Assembly (NCBI RefSeq): GCF_004010195.1
Contig: NC_057719.1
Location: 47,231,227 to 47,295,226, forward strand
Source of the DNA: Chiloscyllium plagiosum
Taxonomy: Eukaryota
DNA: 64,000 nt
Direction: 5' to 3'
Under the pieces are notes generated by a model that searched no databases, had not been told where the DNA came from, and saw only the letters and a program-made list of their open reading frames with translations. The position numbers and the translations under genes are program-made. Positions 3,497 through 62,215 of this stretch are shown in pieces; position 1 is the first letter of the stretch, and every line of letters starts with the position of its first letter.

Positions 3497-4041
3497 TATT
3501 ACTATCTGTACTATACAAGCAAGGAAATCAAAGGTTGAGTGGAAAAGATAGGCTGAGCCTCAAATTAATATTTGGCTTTGTTACTTAAGTTCCAAAATCT
3601 CTTACCACTAGATGGTGCAGAGGCACAAGGATGTATGTACCAGCATGTATGTAACACAAGTAGCCAAATCAAATCAATTTCTTCATCAGGGAAAACAAAG
3701 AGCTCAGATTGGGTCGGGTGGCTAGCTTCAACCTAAAATCAAAGAGCCAGAAATTCAATGACCTGAGGCAAAGGCTTTGACAGTGGGCTGAGATTCATAG
3801 ATACCCAGTTTATCAAGTGAAATGCGAAAAGTTAGGAAATCGGGGGTGGAAAGATGTCCAGTGTTTAAGGGAAGGAAGCAAACTTTTGTGCAAATCTGAG
3901 CAACTTGTGTTACAATGGGTCCAGCAACATAATGCTGGTAACATACATCCTTGATTCGGAGATGCCGGTGTTGGACTGGGGTGTACAAAGTTAAAAATCA
4001 CACAACACCAGGTTATAGTCCAACAGGTTTAATTGGAAGCA

Positions 4042-4076
4042 CACTAGCTTTCGGAGCGACGCTCCTTCATCAGGTG
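4042..4076 (-). ncRNA. Minimal hammerhead ribozyme motif (inverted copy)
   Basis: Reverse complement reads CAC-CTGATGA-A-GGAGC(GTC)GCTCC-GAAA-GC-TA-GTG. Confidence 0.75.
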
Positions 4077-4299
4077 ATTGTGGAGGGCTCGATCGTAACA
4101 CAGAATTTATAGCAAAAATTTACAGTGTGATGTAACTAATAGTTCAGTGATAGTACAGGGAAAGAAGTGAAACTATTCTAAGTGTATTCTATCAGATGAA
4201 AGGCTTAACAGACAATCAATTTTTCAATGTATAATTTCAGTTACATCACACTGCAAATTTTTGCTATAAATTCTGTGTTACGATCGAGCCCTCCACAAT

Positions 4300-4334
4300 C
4301 ACCTGATGAAGGAGCGTCGCTCCGAAAGCTAGTG
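4300..4334 (+). ncRNA. Minimal type I hammerhead ribozyme motif
   Basis: CAC-CTGATGA-A-GGAGC(GTC)GCTCC-GAAA-GC-TA-GTG: intact core, 5-bp stem II, palindromic AGCT helix III, CAC/GTG stem I. Confidence 0.75.
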
Positions 4335-6969
4335 TGCTTCCAATTAAACCTGTTGGACTATAACCTGGTGTTGTGTGATTTTTAACAACATACATCCTTG
4401 TGCATCTGCACCATCTAGTGGCAAGAGATTTTGGAACTACAGTAACAAAGCCAAATACAAGGGTGGACATTTGAATTCTAAAATGGTAGTACATTTGTTT
4501 GGAGTTACCCAATTGTAAATATTAACATGAAAGACCAGCAAAGTGTGACAATAAGAAAGCAGATTGCTGAAGGGGAAATGTGCTGTAAAATATACCAAAA
4601 GCAAGAAATACAAAAGTAGATTTTAATTATGAACTTTGGGTGGAAAATTAGTGTTAGGTATGTGATGTAGGAATGACAGGCAGTCAATGGCTACGACTAA
4701 TTTCCATTTGGTGGTGTAAATAAACATCTACATTTGCTTGGTCTTCAACTGAAGCAGAAAGTTGGACATTTGGTGGAAGGGTTGGTATTTAGACATAATT
4801 CAGTCACCATTTTGAGGCCACCTTGTTGTCCTTGTTTTATTTGCCCAAACTACTATCCATATTTAAAATGGAAGCTGCCCATGTTAATTTGTCACAATAT
4901 TCTACACAGGGGAAAGGTTATGTTATTGAGGAAAGCCATTCATTTTTACGAAGAAATTTGAATGCCTGGTTATTGACTGGGATTTATGCTTCTGAACTAA
5001 AACTTCTGTGGTAGAATTAAATAAAGCAAGTTCAGCTTACAGATGAACCACAATGCATAGACATTTGAGGCTACCCATTCTGGTAGGACAAACAAAATAG
5101 AGAGTGTTTCTTAAATGGTGAGAGGCTGAAGGAACTTGATGCATTTGTTTTTGAGTCTCTGAAAGTTGACATGCAGCTATAACAAGCAATTAAAAAGGTA
5201 AATGATTTTTGAGCTAGATGGTCTGGCTGCAGAAGCAGAGATCTTTTACTGTGCTTCTATAGAGCCCTGGAGAGACCACACCTGAAGTATTGTGCACAGT
5301 TTAGATTTCCTTCCCTGTGGAAAGATGTACTTGTCATACAGAAAGTACAACAAAGGTTCACAAAATTAATTTCTGACCCTGTGCAGAAAGGTTGGTGGTC
5401 TCTGTCTTTATTCTGAGGAGTTTAAAAGATTGAGAGGTGATTCTTGCAGGGCAGAGCAACAAGACTGTTTCCCCTGAATTAGGGAACACAGTTCAAAATA
5501 AAGAACAAGCCATTTAGGGTTGAGATGAGGAAACATTTCTTTGGTCAGAGGGGTTGTCTGTTTGGAATAATCTGTATCAGGGGCTGTGTAGTCTTTGTCT
5601 ATCTGTCTGTCTGTCTCTCTCTGTACTGTCACCTGCTCCTTAATGTCCTTTACAGGTTCCTTATATCTCAATCAGATTTTAAAATGCACATCCTGGCTTA
5701 CAAATTTCTTTACCTTACACCTGTAACTCTGCAAAATAGCTCACACACTCCTTAATTAGGATTTTCTCTCCATTTCATTAATGGCAGACTTTTTGAACAT
5801 CAATTCCTGCACTCACTTTTATCGAGTCATTTCTTTTGTCAAGTTCAAAAACTTTCTTAAAAATTAATTATTTGGTCACTCTCCATAAACCTCATGCTTG
5901 GAGCTTGTTCCAATCATTTATAAAATATCTGGCTTTTCCCTTTCAAAGTTGCTATAGAAACCCAAGTTGTCTTCGTTGTTCATTCTTGACTAACAGATGC
6001 CTCTTACACTTTGTATACATCACTCATCTGTTTATGGAGAAAACAGAAACTGCTGGAAAAGCTCAGGAGGTCTGTCAGCGTCTGTGCAGAGTAATCAGTT
6101 AACTTTTGGTTTCAGTGACCCTTGAAGCCCCAACCTTTGACACAAATACAGTAGCCCCACCCATGACGTGAGAACAGTTGCTCCCAACTGATTCCAGGAT
6201 CCAGTTATTGGGCCCTGATGTATCTCCTTGTCCCAAGCATTGATCAGGAGTGGCTAGGAATGTGGTATTCAAAACACAAAACAGCCCTGCAGAGCAGTTC
6301 AAAGGGCTGAATCACCTACTTCTATTTCTAATTTGTACGTCTAAGTGCTTGTAATTACAACAAAAGGAACTTCCTTTTCAAGTAAATATCCAATTACCTT
6401 TGAAATGTACAATTAAAGGTGCTTCCATCACTCTTTCAGAAAATCAATTTGCGATTATAACCCACATGGAAAACAGAAACTGCAGCCTAAGAGGCTATTC
6501 AGTGCTTCACCATCCATCCTGCTGGTTCTCCAAATGGAATACGGGGTCCTCCCTATGTCCTTGTTATAAACCTGACCAGATCCTTTTAAAATAATATTCA
6601 TCTCCATAGCACATTACTCATCCTCCACTCTACGATTCACATTTATTTGCATGTGATTAGAAATCGCTCTCGCCCTTTAACAGGCTTTGCTTGTAAATGT
6701 TTCATTAACCATATGGCTGTTTTCCTTTTGATGGAAAAAAATTAATAATGAAATCTTTAAACAATGGTGTCTTGTCATTGTATATTAGAAAAAAAATTTA
6801 AACACAGCTACGGGTCATTCGAGCAAAACGTAAGTATTACTGTAAGCCCTCTTGGGTGCAGTGAGGGGGAAAAATAAAAACAACAAACATTTCTCTCCCT
6901 CTATTTCTCACACACTGAGCATTGGAGAACGAGCCAGCCTCCAGCTTCCTGCTTCCTGACTCGTGTCTA

Positions 6970-7100
6970 GGAACTGTCCAATCACAACAGAGAAGTCGCC
7001 AAAGGCCAGCCAATCAGAAGCTGTGCATCCAGTCTCCGCCCAGAATGTGGGGAATTGGCCAATCAAAGCTGGCCGTGGGAATACAGGTTTTTTTTAAAAA
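6970..7100 (+). promoter_or_regulatory. Putative CDKN3 cell-cycle promoter (NF-Y CCAAT boxes, GC box, CHR-like element)
   Basis: CCAAT at 6978 and 7010 (32 bp apart), palindromic ATTGGCCAAT at 7054-7063, CCGCCC at 7036-7041, TTTAAA at 7093-7098, followed by a strong splice donor. Confidence 0.65.
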
Positions 7101-7132
7101 AAGAACCGACTGTAAACGTATTTGTGAAAGGG
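7100..7132 (+). other. CDKN3: Probable non-coding exon 1 of CDKN3 (5' boundary unknown)
   Basis: Donor GG|GTAAGT with GT at 7133-7134, directly downstream of the CCAAT cluster; no ATG in this stretch. Confidence 0.55.
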
Positions 7133-7139
7133 GTAAGTG

Positions 7140-7800: not shown

Positions 7801-7861
7801 GGCAAGGCATGGTGAACCTGGTGAGTGCGGGTCAAATGTGCTGGGATTGTGTTATATTGGA

Positions 7862-8010: not shown

Positions 8011-9388
8011 NNNNNNNNNNNNNNNNNNNNNNNNNNNNNNNNNNNNNNNNNNNNNNNNNNNNNNNNNNNNNNNNNNNNNNNNNNNNNNNNNNNNNNNNNN
8101 NNNNNNNNNNNNNNNNNNNNNNNNNNNNNNNNNNNNNNNNNNNNNNNNNNNNNNNNNNNNNNNNNNNNNNNNNNNNNNNNNNNNNNNNNNNNNNNNNNNN
8201 NNNNNNNNNNNNNNNNNNNNNNNNNNNNNNNNNNNNNNNNNNNNNNNNNNNNNNNNNNNNNNNNNNNNNNNNNNNNNNNNNNNNNNNNNNNNNNNNNNNN
8301 NNNNNNNNNNNNNNNNNNNNNNNNNNNNNNNNNNNNNNNNNNNNNNNNNNNNNNNNNNNNNNNNNNNNNNNNNNNNNNNNNNNNNNNNNNNNNNNNNNNN
8401 NNNNNNNNNNNNNNNNNNNNNNNNNNNNNNNNNNNNNNNNNNNNNNNNNNNNNNNNNNNNNNNNNNNNNNNNNNNNNNNNNNNNNNNNNNNNNNNNNNNN
8501 NNNNNNNNNNNNNNNNNNNNNNNNNNNNNNNNNNNNNNNNNNNNNNNNNNNNNNNNNNNNNNNNNNNNNNNNNNNNNNNNNNNNNNNNNNNNNNNNNNNN
8601 NNNNNNNNNNNNNNNNNNNNNNNNNNNNNNNNNNNNNNNNNNNNNNNNNNNNNNNNNNNNNNNNNNNNNNNNNNNNNNNNNNNNNNNNNNNNNNNNNNNN
8701 NNNNNNNNNNNNNNNNNNNNNNNNNNNNNNNNNNNNNNNNNNNNNNNNNNNNNNNNNNNNNNNNNNNNNNNNNNNNNNNNNNNNNNNNNNNNNNNNNNNN
8801 NNNNNNNNNNNNNNNNNNNNNNNNNNNNNNNNNNNNNNNNNNNNNNNNNNNNNNNNNNNNNNNNNNNNNNNNNNNNNNNNNNNNNNNNCACAGCAACGAG
8901 CACCCGAGCTACAAATCTTCGCACAAACTTTGAGTGGGTGAGGGAAAGAGAGAAGGAGGGACAGAGACAGTGAAAGACTGAGTTTTCTGTGTCAGAGTGA
9001 GTGTGACAGAGAGACAGAGAGTGAGAGAGGACCTGTGACAGAAAGAAAGTGAGACAGTCAGAGAAAGAGAGGGAGGGAGCAATGCAAGAGAGAGGGGGAG
9101 AGAGAAAGAGCAAGTGGGTTGGGAATGAGAGGAGAACTGTGAGAGGGAGTGGGGGACATTGAGAGATAGAGACAAAAGTGGACAGTGAGTGAGAGAGAGA
9201 GAGGACAGATAGACAGAGATTCAGTGAGGGGAATGGAGAGCGAGAGACAGAGAGAGAGAAGGGAATAGAGACTGCGAGAGTGAGAGTTTGCAGTTTCAGA
9301 GAGACATAGTGACGGGGAGGTCTGTGACAGAAAGAGAGAGAGATAATGACAGGAAAACAGAGAGAGATGGATAGTGACAGAGATAGTG

Positions 9389-10192
9389 AATCGGATTCCT
9401 GTGAGTGTGGCCTTGATGATCCGGTGTGTGTTCTCTATTTCTGTGTTTTTAATGATTACAAAGGTGTCATCAACGTATCTGACCCAGAGTTTGGGTTGAA
9501 TTTGCAGTAAGACTGTTTGTTCTAACCTTTGCATTACCATTTCTGCTTGGAGTCCAGAGATGGGTGAGCCCACCGTTGATTTGTTCATATATTTGAATGT
9601 GAAGTGTGTTGTGAGGCACAGGTCCAATAGTTTGAGTATGCCATCTTTGTTGATAGGTTCCCCGTCTTGTTGTCTGTTCTGTATGTCCAGCAGGTTGGCT
9701 ATTGTTTCTCTGGCTAGGGTTTTGTCGATAGAGGTGAACAGTGCCTTACATTGAATGAGACCATGGTTTCTTCCTTGTCTATGTGTGTATTTCTGATGAT
9801 GTCCAAGAATTCCTGTGTTGACTATATAGAACAAGGATCCGCTGATCAGGTGTTTCAGTTTCTGCTGTAGTTCTTTAGCCAGTTTGTGTGATGGTGTCCC
9901 TGGTAGTGATACTATTGGTGTCCCTGGTAGTGATTCAATCAATAAGCACATCGACCTGGACCCAATATATCAACCACTGCAGCGGACAGCTGGAACTGAC
10001 AACCGGAAGTGGCAGAGACAAACCACTATAAATGACGGAGGAAACATCACAGAAGCGCTTCACAGGAGGCTCCCAAGCACTGAGGATGTCACCTAGACAG
10101 GGGACGAAACGTCTGCAACACAAATTCCCAGCTTGGCGAACAGAACCACAACAACGAGCACCCGAGCTACAAATCTTCTCACAAACTTTGAA
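9389..10192. mobile_element. Penelope-like element: inverted RT fragment (- strand, 9389-9905) joined to a + strand 3' end/pseudo-LTR (9930-10192)
   Basis: Minus strand gives ALFTSID, LLDLCLTTHFTF, GSPISG, WVRYVDDTFVII. Plus strand gives DSINKHIDLDPIYQPL. The terminal sequence recurs at 8890-8932. Confidence 0.85.
10077..10116 (+). ncRNA. Minimal hammerhead ribozyme motif in PLE pseudo-LTR
   Basis: GCA-CTGAGGA-T-GTCACCT(AGAC)AGGGGAC-GAAA-CG-TC-TGC: intact core, ACGT palindrome, GUC cleavage triplet. Confidence 0.8.
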
Positions 10193-10445
10193 TGTTTCTC
10201 TAGATTGGTAGTTATGTGGCTCTCCACACAGTATCCAGAGAGAATAGGGATTTTTTTTGCCTGCTTATTCAGAGACAGGGTAAAATCTATAGTTCCCTCA
10301 AATAACTGTATAGAGTCCGGTGTCCCATTACCAAGTCACCCTTTATTTACTAGTGCACGGTATAGTGACTATGACCAGCCAGCTCAGAGTCAGTCCTCAA
10401 CTGAGGAGATTGTAATCTCCTGGTCATATTGGAGAGTGAAGGCTT

Positions 10446-11547
10446 GGACTCAATGTATAATGATCTGGGCAATGGGGGAAAAAATACATCCAATGCCACC
10501 CTCACCCTGATGGCCACCTTTGTGTGTGGCTGCATCAAGATGTGCATGGATCCCCGGTACGCAAGCACCAAGTGTCACTACCTACTGAGGTTCTACCTAT
10601 CCCCGGTGTTACGAAGGTTGGGCCTGGCCTCGCTGCCGCGGAACGTTCCGAGTAGTTGGACCGCTCCGTATCACCTGTCCTTCGTGGAGAAGTTTATGAA
10701 GAAAAACACCTTTGACCACAAGTCCATTAGGAAGTGGTCAGCACGTAGTGTCCTTGAGACCCTTCGGGAAAAGGAGAGAGCGGATCCTATCGAGCGGTTC
10801 CCTGAGCAGACTGTCAAAGCCATTTGGCAGAATGCCTCATCGCCAGAACTTTCCAACAAGCACCAAGACATGGCTTAGCTGGTTGTGAGAAGGGCTCGGC
10901 CTGTGAGATCCTTTATGCACGCCCAGACTCTCAGCCGCACCGCACGCTGCCCTCGAAGCGGCTGCGGGGGGGACGAGACTGTCACACACCTCCTTCTGGA
11001 ATATGCCTATGCAGAGGAAGTCTGGAGAGGAATGCAGTGGTGTTTGTCGAGGTTCGTCCCGAGCAGCACCGTGACGCAGGACTCCATGCCCTACGGCCTG
11101 TTCCCTGGGACGCACACCGAGACGAACATCAACTGTGCCTGGAGGATCATCAACTCGGTGAAGGACGCTCTCTGGGCGGTCCGAAAACTGTTGATCTTCC
11201 AGCTGAAGGAGTTGACCCCGACTGAGTGTTGCAGACTGGCACATTCCAAGGTCCAGGACTACGTGTTGAGGGACGCGTTGAAGCTTGGGGCAGCTGCCGC
11301 CAAGGCGCGGTGAGGAAAGTCAACCGTGTAACATCTGCCTGCTTAAGAACAGGGGGCCCGCGCAGTCATATGGGCTCCACTGAAGCCTCAGCAGAAGAGC
11401 TGGATAGTAAATGTACAGACTTATATATCTGAAAAATAAATTTTGGTGTCTGTATGTAAAGCAATGTAATGTGTGCACAAGAATGGCATGACCAATTGTA
11501 AAGAGATCCAAATAATTTTATGACTAAAGTATATTTTTGAAATAAAA
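10446..11547 (+). mobile_element. 5'-truncated Tx1/L1-clade copy inserted in the Gypsy LTR
   Basis: Same ORF2 C-terminus as 1392-1770 (CPRSGCGGDETVTHLLLE). 8-bp TSD GAAGGCTT at 10438-10445 and 11548-11555. Confidence 0.85.
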
Positions 11548-13035
11548 GAAGGCTTTCCTGATTGGCCCAGGAAACCCAATCAAGAACCTCATAGTTAACG
11601 TAGTTCCATCCCACACCCACACTCCACCCCACCCTCGGGGGATGTAGGCCTGGTCTGCTGCTTGTAGCTTCTCTTGTGATACTTTTGTACTGGGACTGGT
11701 TTCTCCAACTCTGACTCAGACATTGGCGATGTGAACTGGCCTATGGCTCGTGCCTTGCATCCGGAACGTCTTGGAAGAGTCTCCTCTTCTTCTGGCACTA
11801 ATGTTTCGGATGCTGAGGTTTCCTCAACACTAGGTGGAGAGGGAGCACCTGCGGTTTCTGCCAGGCCTTCTGGCTGTTCTGTGGGACCAGACATGTTTTG
11901 CTCCTGCCTCATTTGTGTGGTAACAGCTTTCAGATGATCCACATGTTTGTTTATGACTGTATCACTGACCTGAGCTTTGTAAGTCATGGGACCTGACCTC
12001 ACATCAACCTCACTTCGTACCCATACAGGGTCATTTCCATGGTTTTGGCACCAAATGTCATCCCCTGAATTAAATTGTCTGTCTCACTTCAAGGAGGCAT
12101 GTGGCCAGCAATGGTGTTCCTGCTGCTCTTTCACCCTTCTCCCCCTCTGCTCAACACACCCCCACCCCCCCCCAACAGTCTGGGAATATCAGGTTTAACC
12201 TGGTGTGGAGTCTTCCACCCATCACCAACACTGCTGGAGCCATGTAGTTGCATGTGGGGTGGACCTAGAGTTGAACAGGAACAGTTTGGTTTCAATTGAC
12301 ATTGTAGGCTGTTTCTTTAAGCCTGCCTTTGGCATTTGGATCACTTTTTCCGCTAGACCATTAGACGATAGAGGATATTGAGCTGTCCTAATGCTCTGAA
12401 TACCATTAGACTTTAGGAAATATTGGAATTTTCTGCTGGTAATTGACGTCCCATTGTCCATGACCAATACTTCTGGGAGTTTGTGTATTGCAAATGATGC
12501 TCATAACTTCTCATTCAGGGCTAACCCAAATCACAAACCATGTTGTGCTAACCTCGTTTAAAAATCCCAATATGGATTCCCCCAAGTTCTCTAACACCCA
12601 AATAAAATTGATAGTCTTTCAGGAATAGAGAAGGTTTAGGATCGTAATATACCTCAACCAACTTTGTCAACTATTGGAAAGTTTTCTGTCCAGTGCCTTT
12701 GGGAAAGTTAACCCCTTTATAACCAAGAATGCTCTGGGTCCACATGCAGTCAGAAGGATTACTCGTTGCTTTTCGTCTGCCCCAATGTCATTTGCCCAGA
12801 AAAATCAAATGAGTCAAGCTTCTCAAATAAAGACACGATGCCAAAAATGCTTACTCCATCTCCAAGATGAAAGTTGCAAGCAAATGTTCTTCAGGCATGT
12901 CCCGTTTTCTCCCATTGCCTCTGAAAAAAGCTGCATAGGTGCCAGATCCCATTTATGCTCTAGTGCACAGCACACTGGCTTTGATAGCCAGCTTGGAGTC
13001 AGTCCTCAACTGAGGAGATTGTAATCCCTGGTCAT

Positions 13036-17387: not shown

Positions 17388-18515
17388 TGAGTTATAGACT
17401 CATACAGCACAGGAACAGACCCTTCAGCCCAACTCGTCCATGTTGACCAGGTTTCCTAAACCGAACCAGTCCCATTTGACTGCATTTATCGCTCTAAACC
17501 TTTCCTACCCATGTACCTGTCCAAATGTATTTTAAATATAAATATACTCCTCTTACACTTCCTCTGGCAGCTCATTCTATATACGTACCACCCTCTATGT
17601 GGAAAACATTGCCCCTCCACGACCCTTTTTAAATCTTTCCCTCTTCAGGGCCTTACCATTAGCTGTGTAAGTCCTGCCTGGTTCGTGTTACCAAAATGCA
17701 ACATCTCGCATTTATGTAAATTAAACTCCATCTGCCATTCCTTGGTCCATTGGCCCACTTGATCAAAATCCAATTGAAATCTTAAATAACCTTTTTCACA
17801 GTTCACTATACCATCCACAAACCTACATGCCTCCTATATGCAGATTGTTTATAACAATGGTGAACAACAGTGGATCCTTGTGGCTTACCACTGGTCACAG
17901 GTCTCCAGACTGAATAATGACCCTCTGTCTACTACTGTCAAGCCAATATTGTATTCAGTTGGCTAGCTTTCCCTGGATCTCATGTGATCTAACCTTACAA
18001 ACCAGTCTACCATGCAGAACCTTGTCAAAGGCCTTGCTAAAGTCCACATAGAACCTTTTACCACTCTGCTTTCATCTATCATCTTAGCCACCTCTTGAAA
18101 AAGCTCAATCAAGTTTGTGAGACACTATTTCCCATGAACAAAGCCATGCTGACTATCCCTAATCAGTCTTTGCCTTTCCAAATACAGATTCCTGATGAAG
18201 GGCTCCTGCCCGAAACGTCGATTTTCCTGCTCCTTGGATGCTGCTTGACTTGCTGTGCTTTTCCAGCACCACTCTAATCTTGACTCTGATCTCCAGCATC
18301 TGCAGTCCTCACTTTCGCCTTTCCAAATACATGTCGATCCTGTCTCTCAGAATCCCCTCAAACCCCCCACCTTAACCACCATTGACATTAGGCTCACTAG
18401 TAAGTATTTCCCTGGCTTTCCTTGCAACCTATTTTAAATAATAGCACAACATTAGCCACCCTCCAGTGTTCTGGCACCTCACCCATAGCTATAGATGATA
18501 CAACTATTTCTGCGA
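17388..18515 (-). mobile_element. CR1 (HER1-like) LINE fragment, internally deleted
   Basis: Same 3' UTR and RT segments as the copies at 19077-20203 and 62245-63302. Confidence 0.8.
18187..18316 (+). mobile_element. 130-bp PLE-derived SINE-like insertion starting with a hammerhead core (18190-18221)
   Basis: TC-CTGATGA-A-GGGC(TCCT)GCCC-GAAA-CG-TC-GA. 15-bp TSD GCCTTTCCAAATACA at 18172-18186 and 18317-18331. Confidence 0.8.
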
Positions 18516-25087: not shown

Positions 25088-25241
25088 ACTTAAAAATGTG
25101 TTGCTGGAAAAGCGCAGCAGGTCAGGCAGCATCAAAGGAACAGGAGAATCTCCTTTGATGCTGCCTGACCTGCTGCACTTTTCCAGCAACACATTTTGAA
25201 GCTCTGATCTCCAGCATCTGCAGTCCTCACTTTCTCCTATG
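25088..25241. mobile_element. Fold-back PLE-derived element lacking the hammerhead at its apex
   Basis: Inverted arms aaaatgtgttgctggaaaagcgcagcaggtcaggcagcatcaaagga; 10-bp TSD GTATGATTGA at 25078-25087 and 25242-25251. Confidence 0.8.
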
Positions 25242-33263: not shown

Positions 33264-33452
33264 CTAATGCTGTTGTAAACTAATGTTTGATGGAGGAGAA
33301 TAATTCCTATTTGATTTTTCTTTTTTTTCAGCCAACAATGGGAGCTGAAATAAGCTTGCTTTTGTGGGGAATAGCAAATCAAGCGTGCGACTGTTGCATA
33401 CATCAACACAGTAGTTATACAAGACTGTTGCCTTCTTTTACTGATTGAACTC
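33264..33452 (+). repeat. 189-bp direct repeat, copy 2
   Basis: Identical by eye to 32299-32487. Confidence 0.95.
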
Positions 33453-42177: not shown

Positions 42178-42321
42178 CCATATAGATAGTAAAAAAAAGA
42201 CAACAGGTAAAATGCTAGTTTGCACCACCCTTCCTTCTGACAATATGCTAGTATATCTGCATTCATAATAGTAGTAGGGTCGTAGAGACCTGGAACGCTC
42301 ATTATAGGTCTAGTCATGTAC
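42178..42321 (-). CDS. CNIH1: CNIH1 exon 4 (144 nt)
   Basis: (R)[47 protein letters not shown](G). Confidence 0.97.
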
Positions 42322-42979
42322 CTGCAAATAAATGAAACGTGGAAAAGAGTCAATTTCTGTTATCAAATATAGTGATCAACAAATAAGCAAGCCAAAAATG
42401 GAGTACAGACTGTTTCCAGATCATTCATATAATACTTGATACCAAATAAGGCAGACCCATAAAATTAGCTTGATGGACAATGTATCAAATTCAGGTCATG
42501 TCATTGCACAAATTAATTTAATGGTTTATAGTACCTTGATTGAAAATCTAAATAAAATTAGAAAAATGTTTTGGATATAATTTGGTTTTGGTAATGCAAA
42601 ATGGTACAAAGCTACAGTGCTGCAAAGACAATATTAGAATTCTCTACTTTTTTGAACTTAATCAAATAATAGTATCCATTTATAGACAATGTCTCAGATC
42701 GCACATTTCTAAGGAACAGTTGATCCCAAAAATAATACAGTAAGTTATTATTTAAGGGAAGAAAAGATAGTATCCCATTGAAAGAAAAAGTATATAATTC
42801 TGCAAAAATCAAGTCAGAGGTTGGATAGAATTTTAAAAAAAGCTAAGGCAGAGAGAGACATAAATTTAAAAACAGACAGTAAGAGTTTCTACAGGTACTT
42901 AAAAAGTGGAAGAAAATGAGATGATATTGAAAGTATTATCAGAACTAAAAGCTGCTGGACCTGGTCTGCAACATTGTCC

Positions 42980-44492: not shown

Positions 44493-44712
44493 ATTTGGAT
44501 GGTTATATGATTAGGAAGGGTTTAGAGGGATATGGGCCAAATGCTGGCAAATGGGACTAGGTTAGTTTAGGATATCTGGTCGGCATGGAGGAGTTGAACT
44601 GAAGTGTCTGCTTCCGTGCTGTACATCTCTATGACTCTATATGAAAAGTACACAGGTAAAGTTTTAGTTCAACACACACCATCTAGTGGCAGACATTGTT
44701 GATGCAGGCAGA

Positions 44713-44792
44713 CTTAAAAATCACACAGCACCAGGTTATAATCCAACAGGTTTAACTGGAAGCACTGCTCCGAAGTACACAACCAGCTGATA
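44713..44792. mobile_element. Truncated copy of the 3954-4386 PLE family
   Basis: ttaaaaatcacacagcaccaggttataatccaacagg; 11-bp TSD ATGCAGGCAGA at 44702-44712 and 44793-44803. Confidence 0.75.
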
Positions 44793-45174: not shown

Positions 45175-46410
45175 TAAAGAAAGGAAGGAGACAGAAAACA
45201 GGAATTTACAGGCCACATTTGTCAGATTGATTCCAATGTTTTCTTTAAAGGAGGTTATGGTAAGGCACTTGGAAGATCTCAATGTAAATCAGGCAGAGTA
45301 AACAATTTTATGAAAGAGAAGTCATGTTTGACTTAGTTAATTGAGGTAAAAACAATGACTGCAGATGCTGGAAACCAGATTCTGGATTAGTGGTGCTGGA
45401 AGAGCACAGCAGTTCAGGCAGCATCCAAGGAGCTTCGAAATCGACGTTTCGGGCAAAAGGCCTTCTTCAGGAATAATGGAGTTAATTAATTAATTAATTA
45501 GTTAATGGAGTTCTTTGAGGAAGTAACAGTGGAGACAAATGTCAATCTAAGAATATGTACACTTAGATTTCCAGAAGGCATTTGATAAGGTGACACAAAG
45601 GTTACTACACCAAATCATAGCTCATGGTGTTGGGAATAACATTAGTACAGACAGAGGATTGGTCACTAAGGAAACAGTAGGTATAAAAGGGTCACTTCCA
45701 AGTTGGCCAGATATGACTTGGAAAGCTGGGGCTTCACTTTTTATCATTTCTGTCAATGACTTGGATAAAGGGACAATGGATGGTTTCTAAATTTGTTGAT
45801 GACATTAAGAAGGTAGAAAAGTGAACTGTGAAGAGATCTTAAGTAGTCTGCAAAACGATCGTTAAACGTATGGGTATACAATAGAGTATGAACATGTCAG
45901 AAAATATTAACTATTTCAAATTGGCAGGAAGAACAGTAAAGCAACATATTGTTTAAATGGAGAGAAACTGTAGAGCTTTGAGGTCAAGGGAAATCTGGAT
46001 GCCCTAGTATATGAGTCACAAACGGTTGGTGTGCAGGTACAGCAAATGATTTGAAAGGTAACCAGTGTTATCATTTATTAAATGGAGAATAGAATACGAA
46101 ATGAGGGATGTTTTGCATGCGAGGCCTTATCTGGATTACAGTGCACAATTTTTGGCCTTCTGATTTTTAAAAAAATGACATACATTAGAAGTCACTCAGA
46201 AAAGGTTCACTCAACTGATGCTTGAAATGGGGCATTATCAGGAAAGGCTAGTCAGACTGGACATGTATCTCTGGAGCTTACAAGAAGGAGAGCTGATCTT
46301 ACTGAAAAATACAAGATCTGAGAGGACTTCACAATATAGTTGCTAAAATGATATTGCCTTTATAGGAGAGACTAGAACCAGGAATACAGTTTAGAATTAA
46401 GAGGTAGAGA
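45175..46410 (+). mobile_element. Old degenerate CR1-like LINE
   Basis: ttagatttccagaaggcatttgataaggtg translates to LDFQKAFDKV; many stops. Confidence 0.7.
45343..45475 (-). mobile_element. PLE-derived SINE-like element with hammerhead core (45441-45472)
   Basis: Reverse complement TC-CTGAAGA-A-GGCC(TTTT)GCCC-GAAA-CG-TC-GA; one stem II mismatch. Confidence 0.75.
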
Positions 46411-46419: not shown

Positions 46420-47169
46420 TGTTAAAGGGTTAATTTGTTTATTGACATGTAAGAAATTGGATGTCCCGGGGAGTGTGTGTTTTTCAGTCTTGCAGGCAGG
46501 AGGTGACAATCTAATCATACTCTGTTAATGCTGTAGTTTAAGGAGTACCCTAACCGCATGCTGTTTCTGGAAATACCCTAATCACTTTACATTGTTTTTA
46601 GGTGGCATGTGACTATGGGGGAATGGCAGTGGGTTGTGCAAAACTCTGTATAAAGAGAGGACGGGGAGGAAACCTTGTCCAGGGAGCCTCGCTTGACACG
46701 CTCCGCAAGCATCTTGAAGAGTGTTAAGTGATCCTCCAAAGCTTGCTGAAATAAATCGTGGCAGTTCACAGAAGTTGGCGTATTACAGTTGTAGGAAATG
46801 TGTTGCTGGAAAAGCGCAGCAGGTCAGGCAGCATCCAGGGAACAGGAGAATCGACGTTTTGGGCATAAGCCCTTCTTCAGGAATGAGGAAGGTTTGTCCA
46901 GCAGGCTAAGATAACCTTTGTGGTTGGAGGGTTCCTAGCCGGAAGATGGGGCGTTCTTCCTCCAACCGTCGTTTTGTTGTGGTCTGACGATGGAGGAGTC
47001 CAAAGACCTGCATATCCTTGGTGGAGTGGGAGGGGGAATTGAAATGTCGAGCTACAGGGTGGTTGGGTTGGTTGGTCCGGGTGTCCCAGAGGTGTTCTCT
47101 GAAATGCTCCGCAAGTAGCGTATTACAGTTGTATCAAGCATGTAAGAATCTCAAGAAGGGAACCTAACA
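46420..47169 (+). mobile_element. Probable solo LTR interrupted by a PLE
   Basis: TGTTA...TAACA ends, TATAAA near 46649, AATAAA near 46750; interrupts CR1. No clear TSD. Confidence 0.5.
46794..47117 (-). mobile_element. 5'-truncated Penelope-like element with GIY-YIG C-terminal remnant and mutated hammerhead
   Basis: Minus-strand translation LAEHFREHLWDTRTNQPNHPVARHFNSPSHSTKDMQVFGL...RLEEERPIFRLGTLQP; 16-bp TSD GCGTATTACAGTTGTA at 46778-46793 and 47118-47133. Confidence 0.85.
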
Positions 47170-49992: not shown

Positions 49993-50207
49993 GCTGAAAA
50001 TGTGTTGCTGGAACAGCGCAGCAGGTCAGGCAGCATCCAGGGAACAGGAGAATCGATGTTTCGGGCATAATCCCTTCTTGCTGAAGAAGGGCTTATGCCC
50101 GAAATGTCGATTCTCCTGTTCCCTGGATGCTGCCTGACCTGCTGCGCTTTTCCAGCAACACATTTTCAGCTCTGATCTCCAGCATCTGCAGGCCTCACTT
50201 TCTCCTC
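49993..50207. mobile_element. Fold-back PLE-derived element with hammerhead core at the hairpin apex (50081-50110, +)
   Basis: 87-bp inverted arms 49993-50079 and 50084-50170; CTGAAGA-A-GGGC(TTAT)GCCC-GAAA-TG-TC; 14-bp TSD GTATATTCTGTATT. Confidence 0.85.
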
Positions 50208-50413
50208 GTATATTCTGTATTACAAAGTGAATGTGCTTATAGATAAGAGAGATTGTGTGCCAGACTTCAGGTAAAGGCATGCAGTACTGAAAGGAAAATA
50301 CAACAAATAAGCTACAGGAACAGTGTTGCTCATTTAACATAATTTCAATTATCTTTTCGATAGGAAATGCTTAAAATACCTTCAGTAGAAAACTGCAGAC
50401 ATCAGTTACTTAC

Positions 50414-50526
50414 CTCCAGATATGGTAGCCCAGCAAAGGCATATTGACACCCAATGTAAGCCACTCTGTCGCACATAGGAACATGACACAGAAGAAGGCA
50501 TGGATGAGATACTCAGGAAGTACCAG
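50414..50526 (-). CDS. CNIH1: CNIH1 exon 3 (113 nt)
   Basis: [37 protein letters not shown](R). Confidence 0.97.
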
Positions 50527-52854
50527 CTGGAAAAAAAACTTAAAGTCAGCATGTTTTATTATATTTGCTTTTGCACCAAAGCAAAAAAACACCCCTTGGA
50601 TTTTTAAAAATTATTAGAACTCCTCTAGGACAAATCAGTTATTAAAGCAATAGATATTTAGTAAGCAGTCCTCAGGAATTCCACATATGTGGGCCATGTA
50701 ATGATGCCCCGTAAACTATCATTGTTTTACATCTGGAGACTCGACCTCAAATCCAGCCTATGCAATGGACTGAATTTTTCCGCATCTAAAGGTTCCAAGT
50801 AAATATTTGAATAATCTCAATTTTCTAATTTTCTCAATCAAGTTTCTAATGAATGAAAGTCCATAAAACTAAGCATAATCCAGCACCAATCGTCACCAAA
50901 GTAATAGTCTCAAAACCACAAGAATTGAAAGAACTTTACACTGCCTTTATTTCATGCCACATTTTTCATGCAAAATGTGTCATTCCCCAGCATTGCTTAC
51001 AATACGGGAAAATAAATTGGTTCACATCTGATAAAGACAAAAACAAACTTCAAGGAATCTTAGGGGTAATGAACAAATCCATCTTTCGAATAAACATTTA
51101 CATATCCTGTCCAAGCTGCACGTTTATTGACAGGGATGCATTCAGAACAATGGGTGCAACACATGATGCAGAACTATTTCAAAAAAACAATCCCATACAA
51201 ATTCCATAGATATTACAAAGCATGAACAGGAATACCAGTTTGGAAAAAAGCAAGGTATGCAGCAGCCACGTGACATGCAAGTTTAAGAAATTAGAAATTA
51301 TGATGTTATTTTCTAAAATAGTTAAAATATATGTAGACTTTAATACTGCAATCATTTAAAGTCCTTTAATCCCTACAGCACTGTTTCATCCAGGCACAAT
51401 CATGATCCCATTTCAAATTTGACAAAAGGAAAAACCTGTGTCAAGAGCTGATGGGCCTAAAATCATGTCAATCTTCAAACTTCGAAGATTGAGTTGGCAG
51501 GACTTGTAGCTCAGGAACAAAAAGGCTACATGCTTCAATTTTCTTTAAAGTAAAAAATTGAAAGCAACACTTTAAGAATACAGGACAGAGGGGAGAAAGC
51601 AAGAGAAGTGAAACATTTAGAATATTTTTTAAACGTAGAACACATTCTTCTCATTCAAATACGTCAAGGAGAATTTTATGCTTACATGAAGGATATCAAT
51701 TCCAGCAAGTGGAATATTTTTGTTATGTTGTGCTCTAATTTCAATATCAAACATTCCAAAGTCTGATACTACTAATCAGCTGGAGAGCAAAGCTTCCTTC
51801 AATCTGTTTTATCCTCTATCCCCACTATACCTGTTTTAATCATTCCATTTTTCAGTCACCTTTAGAGTACCCACGTGGGGTGTGTTTACCAACTTGAGAA
51901 TGATTTTTGCTCTGGGACTTTAAAGGATATAGTAAACCAGTTGAGTTTTACAACTGCGGTCACCATTAAGCTTTTATTGCATTGAAATTTCATAATCTGT
52001 CATGGTGGGATTCAAGTCCATATCATCAGAAGTTTAACTTTGGGTTCTACTAATCCATAGACAGCCCCAAGGCAGCCTTAATATAGAGCCTTAGCATAAA
52101 AGTACATATCATATTCCAAGTTATTGCCATGCACCAATAATCACACAGAAGTCTTTGATTTTCATGGTATTCTGATCGTAAGCCAACATCAGTTAAACTT
52201 TTCAGAATGAAATGGTTACTTCCAAACAATCCTTTTCTTTAAAAATATGGCTTGAGAAAGAGCATAGCAGCATGGAATTTTGGTTACCTGTCTTAATAGA
52301 CAGCTTTACACCAGAAAAATGGAAATTGGCAGTTAGTACAGGTTCTACCAAATTAGAAGCTATCTTTTATTCATTCACAGGATGATCACTTCCTGAGCCA
52401 TCATTTACTTCCTTAGCTGACCCTGAGATGGTACTGGTGAACTGCCTTCTTGAAACGTTAAAGTCCATTTGTGTAGGTATACCACAATGGCATCAGGGTG
52501 GAAATTCCAGAATTTGACCCAGCAACACTGAAGAAACAAAGGTATGTCTAAATCTGGACAATGAGTGGCTTGAAGGAGTACTTGCAGTAGAATTCAATGA
52601 TTGACACTGTTGGGATATATTTCAGGTGGTTTAGTTTCATATATGTCAAGTTTCTTCCTATATATTCTTGGGGGATGTTGGATATTGTAGCAAGTAACAT
52701 TTTACGCCACATAAATGCTAGACAATGACCATCTCCAATAAGAGACAACCTCATTATTGCCCATTGACATTCAATGGTGTTACCATCACTGAATCCCCCA
52801 TTAACAACATCCTGGGGGGTTTCCATTGATCAAAAATTCAACTGGACTCACTAT

Positions 52855-54722: not shown

Positions 54723-55607
54723 GTGGATGTCGGTTTGCTCACTGAGCTAGAAGGTTAATTTTCAGAGGTTTCATCACCATACTAGGTAACATCATCAGTG
54801 AGCCTCCAGTGAAGCACTGGTGTTAGTGACCCGCTTTCTATGTGTGTGTTTAGATTTCCTTGAGTTGGTGGGTACCCAATGAACGTGGTTTGGTGATTTC
54901 TCAGCAACAAACCTAAAGCAGACAAAACACGTCCAGAAACTCTAGCCACTCTCCCCCTACATCAAAGACATGTCTGAAATGTCTGCCAGACTACTCAGAT
55001 CTCTTGGCACCATGGTAGCCCACAAACCCACCAACACACTAAAACAACAGCTAATGAACTTGAAAGATCCCATACAGACAACAAGCAAAACTAATGTCAT
55101 CTACAAAATAGCTTGCAAGAACAGTAACAAACACTACATTGGACAAACAGGCAGAAATCTAGCCACCAGGATACATGAACATCAACTAGTCACAAAAAGA
55201 CCCATATTCTCACTAGTATCCTTACATACAGATGAAGAGGGACACCACTTCAACTGGGACAACACGTTCATCCTGGGATTTGCCAAACCGATTCACGTAC
55301 GAGAATTCCGAAAAGCATGGCATTCCAACTGGATTTCAATCAATAAACACACCGACTTGGACCCCAATTACCGCCCTCCAAACAAAAGAACAGGAAATGC
55401 CATCACCATAGGACATGACATCACCAACCCAAGGAAACCTAAACACAAATCGAAAGCAGGTCACTAACACCAGTGCTTCACCGGAGGCTCACTGATGATG
55501 TTACCTCGTATGGTAACGAAATCTCTGAAAAACGAACATTTCAGCTCAGTGAGCAAACTTACATCCAGAACCTCAACCTGAGCTAGAAATCTTCTCAAAA
55601 CTAGCTA
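54723..55607 (+). mobile_element. Penelope-like element: GIY-YIG endonuclease remnant (54970-55467) between inverted pseudo-LTRs, each with a decayed hammerhead
   Basis: NVIYKIACKNSNKHYIGQTGRNLATRIHEH; hammerheads at 55489-55528 (+) and 54762-54801 (-); 10-bp TSD ATTCCTGGTT. Confidence 0.9.
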
Positions 55608-58293: not shown

Positions 58294-60543
58294 CGTTCAG
58301 AACATGAGGAAAAAGAACAGAAAAATAAGCCAACAGAACTAGGGATGAAGGACAATGGCAGGGAATATGTGTAGAGCATAAAAATCAGCACAAAACCATT
58401 TGGGCTCCAATAGCCGGCTTCTGTGCTCAAATCTCTCTGCAATATAATTCAATGAAATACAAAATTCCAAACCCATATCAAATAACTGTCTCCCTACATA
58501 AAAAGCAGAAAGATGCAAGTAGTGGTTCAGTAGATAAATGCAAGACAACATCCAGCAGAGCAGTAAGCTCTTTCCAGATCAATCCCAGGACAACTGTTTC
58601 TATTTCTTAGTCATGGTGAAAGAAAGAAACAGCAAATTTGAATGGATAACAATAAATGAACTGTTTCAGAGGAGGTACGGAATAAATTACTCAAATGGTG
58701 AAACAATGGCTAAGTCACTTTCTTTGGGAAAAAAAAACAAGTTAACAACTAGAATCCTGACAATGTATTTACACTATACGTTTTTTGCCAAGGTAACAGA
58801 AACTGAAGATTTAATTCATTTTTAAGACAAGGATATCACTGGCAAGGACGGATTTTTTAAAAAGTCTCACTAGTTCCCCAAGGTACCAACTTGACACAAC
58901 TCACTGGATTGTTTAGGCAATTCATGGCATAAGTAAAAGGCAAACATGTTGATGAGACTGGAATCACATACTGACCAGCCAGAGTCAAAGCAACAAACCA
59001 GATGGAGTGGAAGGAGGGAGAAAGGAGGGGTAACAGGAGGAAAATCTCCTACCACAAAGCATTCAGTCCTCATGGTCCTAAGTTATCTTCCAGCAGTAGC
59101 TATGGCCTTCACTATGGACTACCAAATGCGAGAGATGGCCTCTGATTGGTCAGAGTGGGACCTCTGCCCAAGTAGCCCACTATCGTGTGAAATGCCTGAT
59201 TGGAAAAAGGCATTCCAAGCTTCCTGTGAAGAGACTGTTCACAGGAAATCGCTTCCTCAATTGAATGAGACGCCAGGCACAAATTGAAAATTCTGAGTTT
59301 TAAAACAATCATAAAACTTGCAGATTTTAAATTTTAAAGATTGTACAAGAATAATATTCTAGAGTTGCGCAAGATATTGCATACAGAAGGTTCATGTGGA
59401 AATTCAAACTAAACAGGTCAAGAGGACACTGACTCAGCATGTATAAAGCAAACATAGGTCATGCAACAGATGGAATTAAACTCCAGATAGAGGCAGGGAG
59501 GCAAACACTCAGGATTCTTTGAAGAAACAACTGCAGATCACAGTTATGAGCAGAAAAGGAGAACTTGACATGTTTTTATGGCTGGATGAATGAATATTGC
59601 CAAACTGACCCTTATTCTACAATTCTATTGACTTGTGAATAGTGTTTCAGCCAATAAACTACAAATTAAAAGGTTGCCATTTTGCTAGCATATATGATTA
59701 GAATTGACCATATGACTGTTCAATAATTAACTAATATATATTCTCAATGTATCTTTTTATTCATTGAAAGATTGCCAACCAAAATCTCAATATTGAGATA
59801 AATACTGATCACCAACAATAAACGTTCCACTTTATGCACAAGAACGTGCTTATATGCTTGATGATGCCAGGTGGGTCATTTACAATAGTCTTTCAGTTAA
59901 GCAACTTAAGCAACTGAAGTTGAGATTCTTTAACCATTCCAAAGGATTTATTACATTGTTAAAAATTACAACAGTTGAGCTTGTAAAAGTTTAACACACA
60001 CTGCATGCTTCAATTTCAAGATGATTTCTGATTCCAAATCCTAAATTATTTGATGATACAATCAGCCCTGACAGTGTGGTTTACAAATTAAAATGTAATT
60101 GTAACACCCCAAAACTATGGGTTTTCTTTCCAATGCAGTACTAAGCCAATTTCTTTGAAAATGTGAACAGGTTTTCATTTTACCCCATATATTGTCAATT
60201 ATGATCTGAAAGACATTCACATATGACCTCCAGGAAAAAGGTATTAAAACAAAAGGCATTTTAACTAGAAGTTAGTACGAACCTTTAATGCCAATTTGAC
60301 TCTTTTAATCTTTTTGACCTTTACAACTGTCTTTGTGCCGAAAAAATGACAAAAGCAGATTGAAAGAATGTTAGTATGACAGCTGACAAGATCATTGCAG
60401 ATTAATAACAGTCAGAATACAAAGCAGAGCAAGCGTGAATCAATAGACTCAAATAAAAAGTCCTCTAAGTAGAAAAAACTGGAAGTCTAGATATAAAGCA
60501 AAATACTTAGCCATAAATATTTAAAATAATCTCATTCACTTAC

Positions 60544-60612
60544 AGGATTGAGTGTATTACATTGGTCTATAGGATTCTTGTAGTCAGTCTTCAGTTCATC
60601 AAATGCTATAAT
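60544..60612 (-). CDS. CNIH1: CNIH1 exon 2 (69 nt)
   Basis: IIAFDELKTDYKNPIDQCNTLNP; TTTCAG/GTAAGT boundaries. Confidence 0.97.
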
Positions 60613-61214
60613 CTGAAAAACAGTACATCGCATAAGGGCGCAATTTAATTGTGGATTTCTTCATTTGCAATTGCACAAACTGTTTGACCTAGATTATTCA
60701 TCAAACTAAAAAATATATATCCAATGTAATCTTTATTATATTCCACTCTTTCTACTAAGGATTTTAAATGCGAAATGAAAAATACATTGCATGCATCAAA
60801 AAGTTGTAATAACCACCCTTACACTTGGCAAAATTTGAGTATGCGGTACGGAATTAATCAGTATGTTGACAACAATTGAATAGTCTGGCAACAATCAACC
60901 CAATTCTCTGAATGTATTCAAAGAGAGCAAGAGCATTAGAAATGATTATTGTTTTCAATAAGACGACCGGATTGAGAAGATATTTCAGAGGCTTCGTGAG
61001 AAAGAGAGAAATGGGCTCCTTGTACGGAAGGACCGCCCGGACACCCTCCCTCAGTGCCGGCCTCGGGCCTGATAACTAGGGCCAACCGGCAAATCTACCG
61101 CCATCAGCTTCTCCCCTCCCCCTCCGAGTCAGCAGAAATCGCCTGAGCAAAAGTCTGGACGCTCTTTTAAAACTCGAAACAGATATAAAATCGTATATCA
61201 TTTTCGTAACTCAC

Positions 61215-61295
61215 ATGCCAAATGGCGAAAAATATGAGTGCGGCGGTGAGAAGCAGCGCCAACATGTAACAAAAGGCCGCGAAAGTAAACGCCAT
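61215..61295 (-). CDS. CNIH1: CNIH1 exon 1 coding part
   Basis: [27 protein letters not shown]; Kozak context AAGATGG; donor GTGAGT. Confidence 0.98.
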
Positions 61296-61375
61296 CTTGG
61301 GTCCGTCCAGGCAAGCACCCGGCGCGATAACGTCAGCACGTCAAGGCCAGGCCCCACCTCACGTCATCCACACGA
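61296..61375 (-). promoter_or_regulatory. CpG-rich CNIH1 5' UTR/core promoter with three TGACGT (CRE/UPRE-like) sites
   Basis: ACGTCA at 61330, 61338 and 61361; YY1-like AAGATGGCG spans the ATG; CpG-rich patch about 60960-61375. Confidence 0.65.
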
Positions 61376-61377
61376 TT

Positions 61378-61900
61378 AATATTGATGAGGAGGTGCTGGT
61401 GTTGGACTGGGGTGTACAAAGTCAAAAATCACACAACACCAGGTGACAGCTGAAAATGTGTTGCTGGAAAAGCGCAGCAGGTCAGGCAGCATCCAAGGAG
61501 CATTCTCCTGTTCCTTGGATGCTGCCTGACCTGCTGCGCTGTTCCAGCAACACATTTTCACCCCTGTGTTCTCTGTCTATGCCATGATGTTTAGATTGAT
61601 TCTAATCTAAAAAGTGAGATAACAGAGTTTTACATTAATTCATGCAGTTTTTGAGCTCAGAGGTCTTGTGTGTCCGTGTGTATGTGTGTATAGGAGTGCC
61701 TTTGTGTGTGTGAGAGTGTGTGTGTGTGTGTAGGAGTATCTGTGTGTGTGTGTATAGTGCAATGGTGGTCACCTGTAATGTGACATGAACCCAAGGTCCC
61801 AATATTGATGAGGAGGTGCTGGTGTTGGACTGGGGTGGACAAAGTGAAAAATCACACAACATCAGGTTATAGTCCAACAGATTTATTTGCAAGTGCTAGA
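61378..61900. mobile_element. Cluster of PLE-derived fragments directly upstream of CNIH1
   Basis: Direct repeats at ~61378-61445 and ~61801-61900 of the 3954 family; fold-back element at 61448-61560; (TG)n tract at 61670-61755. Confidence 0.75.
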
Positions 61901-62124
61901 TTAACATTGACCTGGACCCAGGGATATCTTCCCTGCTCTGTTTTATGATAATCCTGTGGGATATGTTGACTCAGATGCTAATATTGACTGGCCTCAGGGG
62001 TATCACCCCTGCTGTTCTTAACATTGACCTGGACTCAGGGGTATCTTCCCTGCTCTGCTTTATGATAATCCTGTGGACCACGTTGACTGAGATATTAATA
62101 TTGACCTGACCCTAAGGATTTCAT

Positions 62125-62215
62125 ATCCTGATGAAGAGTTTATGCTTGGAACGTTGACTCTCCTGTTGCTCGGATGCTGCCTGACCGGCTATGCTTTTCC
62201 AGCACCACAAACTTC
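62125..62215 (+). mobile_element. PLE-derived short element with degenerate hammerhead
   Basis: cctgatgaagagtttatgcttggaacgttgac followed by the same body as 18187-18316. Confidence 0.65.

Follow-up and report, generated by a model that had tools for sequence, protein, structure and literature searches.

Minimal hammerhead ribozymes have been described in the pseudo-long terminal repeats (pLTRs) of metazoan Penelope-like elements (PLEs), mostly as single motifs on truncated copies, and circles were proposed for them by the same authors (Cervera and De la Pena 2014, PMC4209133). Lunse et al., as cited in PMC6765202, reported that such minimal hammerheads cleave as dimers. Insertions of PLEs with an endonuclease (EN+ PLEs) are described as showing 5' truncation, an inverted copy, a tail of 30-40 bp and a target-site duplication (TSD) (Arkhipova 2013, PMC3846280; Craig 2021, PMC8557442). 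We analyzed 64,000 nucleotides of Chiloscyllium plagiosum (assembly GCF_004010195.1, contig NC_057719.1, positions 47,231,227 to 47,295,226 of the forward strand), called the window throughout, in which a previous inspection of the letters alone, the sequence-only reading, had noticed recurrent hammerhead-bearing mini-retroelements. These repeats are the termini of four EN+ PLE families, named A to D, which have parents encoding a reverse transcriptase (RT) or a GIY-YIG endonuclease and between 10^3 and 10^5 exact genomic matches each. In families A and B, many of the short copies begin just upstream of the ribozyme core, on a promoter-like signature, and we consider it probable that many of these short copies, or minis, are run-off cDNAs primed internally on capped mRNA and ending at the predicted transcription start.

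Three other described systems bear on this comparison. In Drosophila Penelope, the transcription start site (TSS) lies inside the pLTR, and the account of that element leaves pLTR regeneration unexplained (Schostak 2008). The RT of the green anole Poseidon element (PAc) primes internally at two adjacent sites and on both target strands, takes uncleaved RNA as its main substrate and needs about 55 nt of RNA beyond the priming site, which corresponds to positions +111-118 of an open reading frame (ORF) starting at stem II (Frangieh 2024, PMC11167929). PLE-derived non-LTR retrozymes, where LTR stands for long terminal repeat, consist of tandemly arrayed units and carry two or more hammerheads (Li 2026, bioRxiv 10.64898/2026.07.22.740005). 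PLE elements, hammerhead-bearing termini and inverted copies with tails are thus already known from the published descriptions (Cervera 2014; Craig 2021), and what our analysis adds is the pile-up of 5' ends on a promoter signature in families A and B, a well-supported end, together with a testable and partly inferred mechanism. In our literature search, which left out subscription journals, Repbase/Dfam and supplements, we found no published account of a PLE strong-stop product, a TSS-bounded pile-up, an R-U5 arrangement or a poly(A) site of this kind.

The window was scanned with the pattern CTGANGA, one optional unpaired base, stem II and GAAA, and positions are given as those of C3. Eight cores were found, with C3 at 4303, 10080, 18192, 50081 and 55492 on the forward strand and at 4073, 45470 and 54798 on the reverse strand; for the latter, the numbers of the sequence-only reading mark the opposite end of motifs that are indeed present. 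Seven cores have at least three stem II pairs, against a mean of 0.78 (maximum 2) in 40 Markov controls, which upholds the proposal that they are real, and the core at 45470 has only two. When a palindromic helix III, UH and stem I are added to the core requirement, four of the seven (4303, 4073, 10080 and 18192) are fully intact, against none in 60 controls; the palindromic helix III attributed to the best copies therefore holds for these four and is broken at 50081, 55492 and 54798. Stem I, stem II and helix III differ in sequence among the four families while their pairing is kept, and these compensatory stems confirm the earlier division into families by stem II. The window motifs are minimal type I hammerheads with an unpaired base 9.1 and a palindromic helix III, whose cleavage is predicted from their sequence. 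They share with the metazoan PLE hammerheads of PMC4209133 the type I core, the unpaired base between 9 and 10.1, the G10.1-C11.1 pair, the palindromic 15.2-16.2, a short stem I, the many families per genome and the occurrence of some opposite-strand pairs; as far as the ribozyme is concerned we see no difference, and the 5' starts of short copies are unmapped in the portion of that paper on which we draw. An Rfam scan of the window gave no hammerhead family at E<=5, and its miRNA matches are spurious, coming from palindromic copies of family B. The minimum-energy dimer folds of five window copies were not the catalytic dimer fold, a result of little weight.

An intact ribozyme is present in 15/38 copies of family A, 39/103 of B and 19/34 of C, and most copies are decaying. 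Copies that had not been fetched by core, junction, RT or pair selection are called unbiased here (65 of family A, 184 of B and 37 of C). The core of unbiased family B copies diverges less than the other columns (0.019 vs 0.064, p 0.001), and the same comparison is not significant in families A and C. The low value in B is best read as the result of subfamily divergence outside the core, and not as selection on single copies. Two of the decayed copies noticed earlier, near 46850 on the reverse strand and 62128 on the forward strand, are true members of family B (C3 at 46880, where GAAA has become AAAA, and at 62128). A third, at 16265, was rejected, since it has no stem II and matches none of the family references. 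A fifth, older family of hammerhead-type termini, with a stem II of the type GGGTCAC...GACC, is present in decayed form at about 6030-6110 on the reverse strand of the window and also at the sampled loci L040, L171, L183 and L247.

Genome abundance was counted as exact pattern matches, for which reversed controls gave 0. Family A has 5,931 matches to its core and 27,264 to its 3' part, family B has 15,943 and 132,608, family C has 8,273 and 13,756, and family D has 1,462. Ten frames upstream of the motifs were tested for parent proteins, with RVT_1 found in 3/10 and GIY-YIG in 1/10; overall, an RT (RVT_1) was seen in loci of A, C and D and a GIY-YIG domain in D and, just under the cut-off, in B, and no Pfam match was obtained for the RT of family B. 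These parents agree with the earlier suggestion that the motifs are PLE termini copied by PLE machinery. A CX2-5CxxC linker before GIY-YIG is described as defining the Neptune clade (Craig 2021, PMC8557442). Family A has such a linker, CHGRRCKTC (C-x4-CxxC), and family B has CKTC (CxxC), its first C being masked by a frame break in the single copy examined; in the stretch read for family D, there is no such cysteine linker. On these motifs, A and B appear to be Neptune-like. Families C and D are presumably Poseidon-like, judging by their motifs. In near-full-length copies of family A (loci L362, L381, L382 and L383), the terminus leads into a long ORF whose ATG is at +121 from C3, and in family B the ATG follows at about +163; what the minis contain is thus the leader at the 5' end of the autonomous element. 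In some copies, a pLTR overlaps the 5' end of the ORF copy as a partial tandem (L362, L381 and L383 in A; L401, L404 and L427 in B).

The 5' ends of the copies are what sets families A and B apart. Each copy was anchored on sequence 3' of the cleavage site and then followed upstream by comparison with natural long copies, and termini affected by an assembly gap, the locus edge or an internal indel were dropped (28/240 in A, 41/287 in B and 5/79 in C); family D, with 7 unbiased copies, was left out. The 5' end falls at -12 to -1 from C3 in 19/65 unbiased copies of A, 77/184 of B and 1/37 of C. If only the copies that reach the core are considered, the fractions are 19/40, 77/110 and 1/35, so that the sharing of 5' ends that the sequence-only reading had proposed to count is present in A and B and absent in C. 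Within the next 18 nt upstream, only 2/21 copies of A and 2/33 of B end. The termination per nucleotide is consequently about 7-fold (A) and 17-fold (B) higher at -12 to -1 than just upstream (Fisher p 0.004 in A and 2e-11 in B; A vs C, 1e-5). The modal end is -8 in A and -3/-4 in B, and the edge of the pile-up is abrupt on its upstream side and trails downstream. Copies ending inside the core region number 19 in A and 52 in B. Family C behaves as expected of ordinary variable 5' truncation, its ends being scattered from -2 to beyond -250. In three of its copies (L088, L089 and L105), the inversion centers on the palindrome GAAGCGCTTC, at about -28.

The dominant 5' end of A and B is non-random, which is a well-supported observation, and the sharp cliff just upstream of the core means that their stubs are not random truncations. 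The option that the units are extreme 5' truncations thus fails for these two families and suits family C. Strong 5' truncation is a known PLE trait according to Craig 2021 (PMC8557442), and a process that strongly favors short products and has no special end would account for family C, for the A and B copies that end in the core region and for the weakness of the A pile-up in randomly chosen stretches (2/17 minis). The rise in termination at -12 to -1 is what it does not explain, and already disfavors it for B; as an account of A and B we regard it as very improbable. Hammerhead self-cleavage, with the cDNA stopping at the cut site, makes a different prediction, since the ends would lie at +29 in A and +28 in B. 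One end is found there in A against 1.38 expected, and 7 lie within 1 nt of the cut in B against 3.35 expected (p 0.054), a slight excess in its favor; the main peak, however, lies 32-37 nt upstream of the cut, its copies retain the complete ribozyme, and uncleaved RNA is the main substrate in the anole system (Frangieh 2024, PMC11167929). We find this origin scarcely credible. In addition to these ends, the two core-less family B palindromes of the window (25088-25237 and about 61447-61560) have one arm each that begins at +28/+29, the predicted cleavage site.

The sequence around the pile-up resembles a core promoter. In family A, 56/62 long copies have TATAA at a distance of 28-32 nt upstream from the pile-up base, with a spacing of 30 in 45/62, and in family B, TTATCT lies 30-32 nt upstream in 26/29 long copies, across divergent subfamilies. 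The pile-up base is the A of TCCACA in family A and of TTATTC or TCATTC in family B, words of the initiator (Inr) type. Measured from C3, the family A map is thus TATAAA at -38, pile-up at -8, hammerhead from 0 to +28 and ATTAAA at +40, and the family B map is TTATCT at about -35 and pile-up at -4. TTATCT is also a GATA-like word in reverse, and several B copies end at -32 to -40. A splice acceptor as the cause of the B cliff was considered and rejected, the nearest AG being at -21, where no ends pile up.

A second signature is found at the junction with the target. A G stands 5' of the junction in 17/19 family A copies starting at -8, against 39/141 elsewhere (p 3e-7), and in 11/19 unbiased B copies starting at -4, against 34/106 elsewhere (p 0.04). 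In a hand count of the first 100 genome matches listed for A, the junction base is G in 78, A in 11 and T in 11. An extra G is described as a mark of the capped 5' ends of full-length L1 insertions (PMC11702581).

RNA reads provide the third line of evidence. In the RNA run X19, non-templated poly(A) was found at +57 (358 reads) and +60 (446 reads) of the full-length family A 5' end, about 12-15 nt past ATTAAA and ahead of a GU-rich stretch; ATTAAA or AATAAA is present in 55/63 family A copies. Read depth was about 1-10 over the start of the A ORF and in the hundreds over the terminus. Back-joints exactly on -8 were seen in X19 (4 reads) and X4 (one contig joint). The signal used in the RNA run is that of locus L383 (3375-3395, equivalent to window 4343-4363), and family A has tens of thousands of copies. 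Taken together, the TATA or TTATCT box, the Inr, the junction G and the poly(A) site make the terminus read like U3-R-U5, and the pile-up base in A and B is likely to be the element's transcription start, as predicted from these signals.

The main rival explanation places the cause in a protein or in RNA structure, with a GIY-YIG cut near stem I or an RT stalled at a protein-bound hammerhead fixing the 5' end. In A and B alike, the cliff coincides with the 5' boundary of stem I, ATT, the preferred cut motif of the anole endonuclease (Frangieh 2024), stands at the start of the B peak, and resolution of an intermediate by the endonuclease has been proposed for the tail (Craig 2021, PMC8557442). 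On the other hand, ATT is absent at the A peak base, family C shares the fold yet lacks the cliff, an edge that is sharp upstream and trails downstream is what a template end would give, and the box at -30, the Inr and the junction G are left unexplained. We therefore judge this explanation unlikely.

At their other end, the copies fall into two classes, at about +84/+120 from C3 in A, +88/+125 in B and +73/+112 in C. Inverted junctions are frequent (37/65 in A, 99/184 in B and 11/37 in C), and head-to-head pairs combine one long and one short arm in 44/45, 47/52 and 8/10 cases, respectively. The long ends match the priming site of PAc, which is about 120 nt from C3. The likeness to that element extends to a tail defined by two internal sites of RT initiation, about 85 and 120 nt from C3, to priming on both strands and to the use of uncleaved RNA. 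It differs in that the paper assumes a multi-copy tandem transcript, its main text being without cap run-off or short genomic products. All the structural traits of canonical EN+ PLE insertions are likewise common to the copies studied here; the published truncation is described as variable, in the sources cited above, whereas in A and B one fixed end predominates and coincides with a core-promoter signature, and the family A terminus contains a poly(A) site.

The minis could also be true non-autonomous families, comparable to short interspersed elements or retrozyme monomers and amplified from mini masters by PLE proteins. The 39 solo B minis have uniform lengths, 83-104 or 123-139 bp, and 13 of them have TSDs; both non-autonomous PLEs (Craig 2021) and PLE-derived retrozymes (10.64898/2026.07.22.740005) are described. 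In a nearest-neighbor test of the labels mini and long, on a sample that includes selected copies, B copies share their label above chance (0.72 vs 0.65, p=0.02), one subfamily yielding more minis, and A copies are not sorted (p=0.20). All of the marker words, 7/7 in A and 9/9 in B, occur in both minis and long copies. Common flanks are found in 0/21 solo minis of A and 6/64 of B, there are no tandem arrays with two hammerheads per unit, the minis lack both the upstream promoter region and the downstream sequence required by the anole protein, and, as given above, fewer than half of the A and B copies retain an intact ribozyme. The minis form no separate lineage in A and show only a modest subfamily skew in B. 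With all markers shared, and the mini being the 5' leader of an autonomous ORF, the earlier option of true non-autonomous families does not hold for A and B, and we consider this origin quite improbable. The retrozymes and Chlamys PLEs such as MRC1 (Craig 2021) are likewise non-coding, hammerhead-bearing and PLE-derived, but retrozymes are tandem arrays, whereas the copies here are dispersed single or head-to-head stubs; those of the window are solo or head-to-head and not head-to-tail, and are thus not retrozymes by that definition.

Internal loss of the ORF, which would also suit a non-autonomous origin, is common in family B. Among the loci with a B ORF start (L398-L427), 22/30 are gutted: within 1.5 kb downstream of the ATG, they have a hammerhead match on the same strand. 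The first 34-611 nt of the ORF (1366 in one case) are joined to the 3' terminus, and the breakpoints are mostly different; three gutted loci with different breakpoints have one common length, and two of these three adjoin assembly gaps. Gutted copies seem to be the product of template jumps or of deletion.

In LTR retroelements, minus-strand strong-stop DNA is primed just inside the 5' end, and R is the segment between the TSS and the poly(A) site. Starting from the coordinates, the pile-up, the junction G, the poly(A) of one RNA run and the leader that continues into the ORF, we propose a comparable route for the minis. U3 would drive transcription from the pile-up base, giving an mRNA of the form cap-R-U5-ORF-U3-R-poly(A), in which each R contains a complete hammerhead. 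The family A terminus would consist of U3 (with the TATA box), R (-8 to about +58, with the hammerhead inside) and U5 (to +84 or +120), followed by the ATG; R is defined for family A only, because most B copies have no poly(A) hexamer. The RT-endonuclease would nick the target and prime at either of the two internal U5 sites, as the anole element does in vitro, and priming on both target strands would give head-to-head pairs with one long and one short arm. As U5 would be present only at the 5' end of the mature mRNA, U5-primed synthesis would run 90-135 nt to the cap. On uncut linear mRNA, it would stop at the cap, often copied as an extra G, and the cDNA, once linked either to the target or to a second arm, would become a mini, a promoterless dead end. 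Copies that contain U3 could come from read-through RNA, from strand transfer through R, or from a circle closed by ligation after the two hammerheads of a single transcript have cut as a dimer. The marker tables of long copies show no clear crossover position and do not separate the strand-transfer and circle routes.

In the proposed route, the likeness to LTR strong-stop synthesis lies in priming near the 5' end, a short R-U5 first product and terminal redundancy through R; the differences are that the primer is nicked target DNA and not a tRNA, that the short product is integrated, that R contains a ribozyme and that there is no integrase. A broader proposal, which we advance tentatively and would not be surprised to see fail, is that PLE pLTRs are working analogues of LTRs, with a terminally redundant mRNA, a hammerhead in each R, a strong-stop product and a pLTR rebuilt where R crosses to U3, by strand transfer or a hammerhead circle. 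The hundreds of thousands of minis would then be integrated failures that record the TSS.

Several observations weigh against a capped template end as the source of the pile-up. Family C has TATA- and Inr-like motifs yet no cliff. In purely random stretches, minis account for 2/17 copies in A, a weak signal, and 15/36 in B, and the sampled copies come mostly from the start of one contig (C1). As for the junction, the B genome list (65 G, 35 A) is no different from the local control (p 0.11), the solo A copies have a junction G in 1/3, and among the 19 A junctions one end is misassigned and two are the arms of a single palindrome. Many junction Gs also belong to the TSD or to the inverted arm; such sharing is compatible with joining by way of a cap-templated C but does not prove it. 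The RNA reads show no pile-up of molecule starts on the A 5' end. The poly(A) reads are from one run, possibly of an organism other than the source of the genome, and perhaps represent few host transcripts; the sister run X20 gave 0 reads on the family A 5' end. The poly(A) hexamer is missing in 173/184 family B copies.

In the window, the family A insertion lies between a 14-bp TSD (3940-3953 and 4387-4400) and consists of an inverted arm on the reverse strand (3954-4137) with the long tail end and an intact hammerhead (C3 4073), and a direct arm on the forward strand (4160-4386) with the short end, which extends about 143 nt upstream of C3 and is therefore no mini. On the direct arm are a TATAAA box (4265-4270) 30 nt upstream of the pile-up base A(-8) at 4295, the predicted transcription start, within the putative Inr TCCACA; a minimal type I hammerhead (4300-4334; stem I CAC/GUG, stem II GGAGC/GCUCC, helix III AGCU) with its predicted cut between 4331 and 4332; and the ATTAAA signal (4343-4348), with the equivalent of the poly(A) site at about 4360-4363 and a GU-rich stretch next. 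The solo family B mini is 129 bp long (18188-18316, forward strand), starts at A(-4) and has an intact hammerhead (C3 18192); its TSD is 15 bp (18172-18186 and 18317-18331), and a single G (18187) separates the left TSD from the mini.

The remaining members of family B are a head-to-head palindrome without a core at 25088-25237, absent from the sequence-only reading (arms beginning at about +28 and +34, TSD about 10-14 bp); a solo mini with the long end on the reverse strand (45343-45479, C3 45470) that has a stem II mismatch and a TSD of about 9-13 bp; a reverse-strand copy at 46794-47115 with a C-terminal endonuclease fragment, an internal deletion, a broken core and a TSD of 16-18 bp; a palindrome of one short and one long arm (49993-50207) with both hammerheads damaged and a 14-bp TSD; and a decayed mini on the forward strand (62123-62215, C3 62128, TSD 7-9 bp). 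Family A has in addition a short, decayed copy (44712-44792, reverse strand, TSD about 11 bp) and a composite of pieces on the reverse strand (61382-61893), which holds within it the core-less B palindrome of about 61447-61560; such nesting of a B palindrome in an A terminus is also seen, with a target duplication, at L382:3180-3390. Family C, Poseidon-like by the assumption made above, has a long-end terminus on the forward strand (9932-10192) with an intact hammerhead (C3 10080) and an ORF fragment at 9384-9919 on the reverse strand, inverted relative to the terminus. The family D insertion, taken as Poseidon-like too, is 885 bp long (54723-55607, TSD 10-12 bp), with an inverted arm (54723-54870, C3 54798) and a direct arm (54871-55607, C3 55492) that holds a GIY-YIG fragment (54946-55464); helix III is mutated in both arms. 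TSDs of about 9-18 bp surround nine window insertions, and none was found at the 10 kb copy of family C, so the description of the elements as TSD-flanked is correct for most of them. The size range is wider than the 130-430 bp first given, since the 10 kb and 55 kb copies hold ORF fragments.

The window contains 17 termini in 62.6 kb, or 1 per 3.7 kb, against 77 in 388 kb, or 1 per 5.0 kb, in forty 10-kb stretches of arbitrary genome DNA taken at fixed positions. The density in the window is therefore typical of the genome; both the locus and the ribozyme class are ordinary. A scan of 318 window frames, in which further exons were possibly missed, gave an exon with a CDKN3 match (PF05706; 33574-33801, forward strand, E 3.5e-28) and a cornichon gene (PF03311; 42180-60648, reverse strand) with three exons, near 60541-60648, 50413-50529 and 42180-42332. 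The copies found from 44.7 to 55.6 kb are flanked on both sides by exons of cornichon, which fits, for these copies, the intronic location proposed for most copies within two genes presumed essential in the sequence-only reading. By the density comparison, position within both genes carries no signal, and no link between the elements and CDKN3 or cornichon was seen. An identical 189-bp direct repeat (32299-32487 and 33264-33452) adjoins the CDKN3 exon and is possibly an assembly duplication. Two related retrotransposon fragments (3-1699 and 10405-11319) are 93% identical over 253 bp and, from their translated motifs, are presumably L1/Tx1-like, and a frame at 11598-12500 on the reverse strand is integrase-like and presumably part of a decayed LTR retrotransposon.

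Should the cliff prove to be the TSS, the most common insertions would preserve, in fossil form, the first step of PLE replication, uncleaved capped mRNA would be a main template in vivo, and each transcript would have two hammerheads, which fits the dimer requirement. The exact coordinates given here can be used for tests in the existing in vitro PLE system. This vertebrate genome has such a terminus about every 5 kb, some of them with a usable poly(A) signal, and by their number and this signal, family A termini could end host transcripts.

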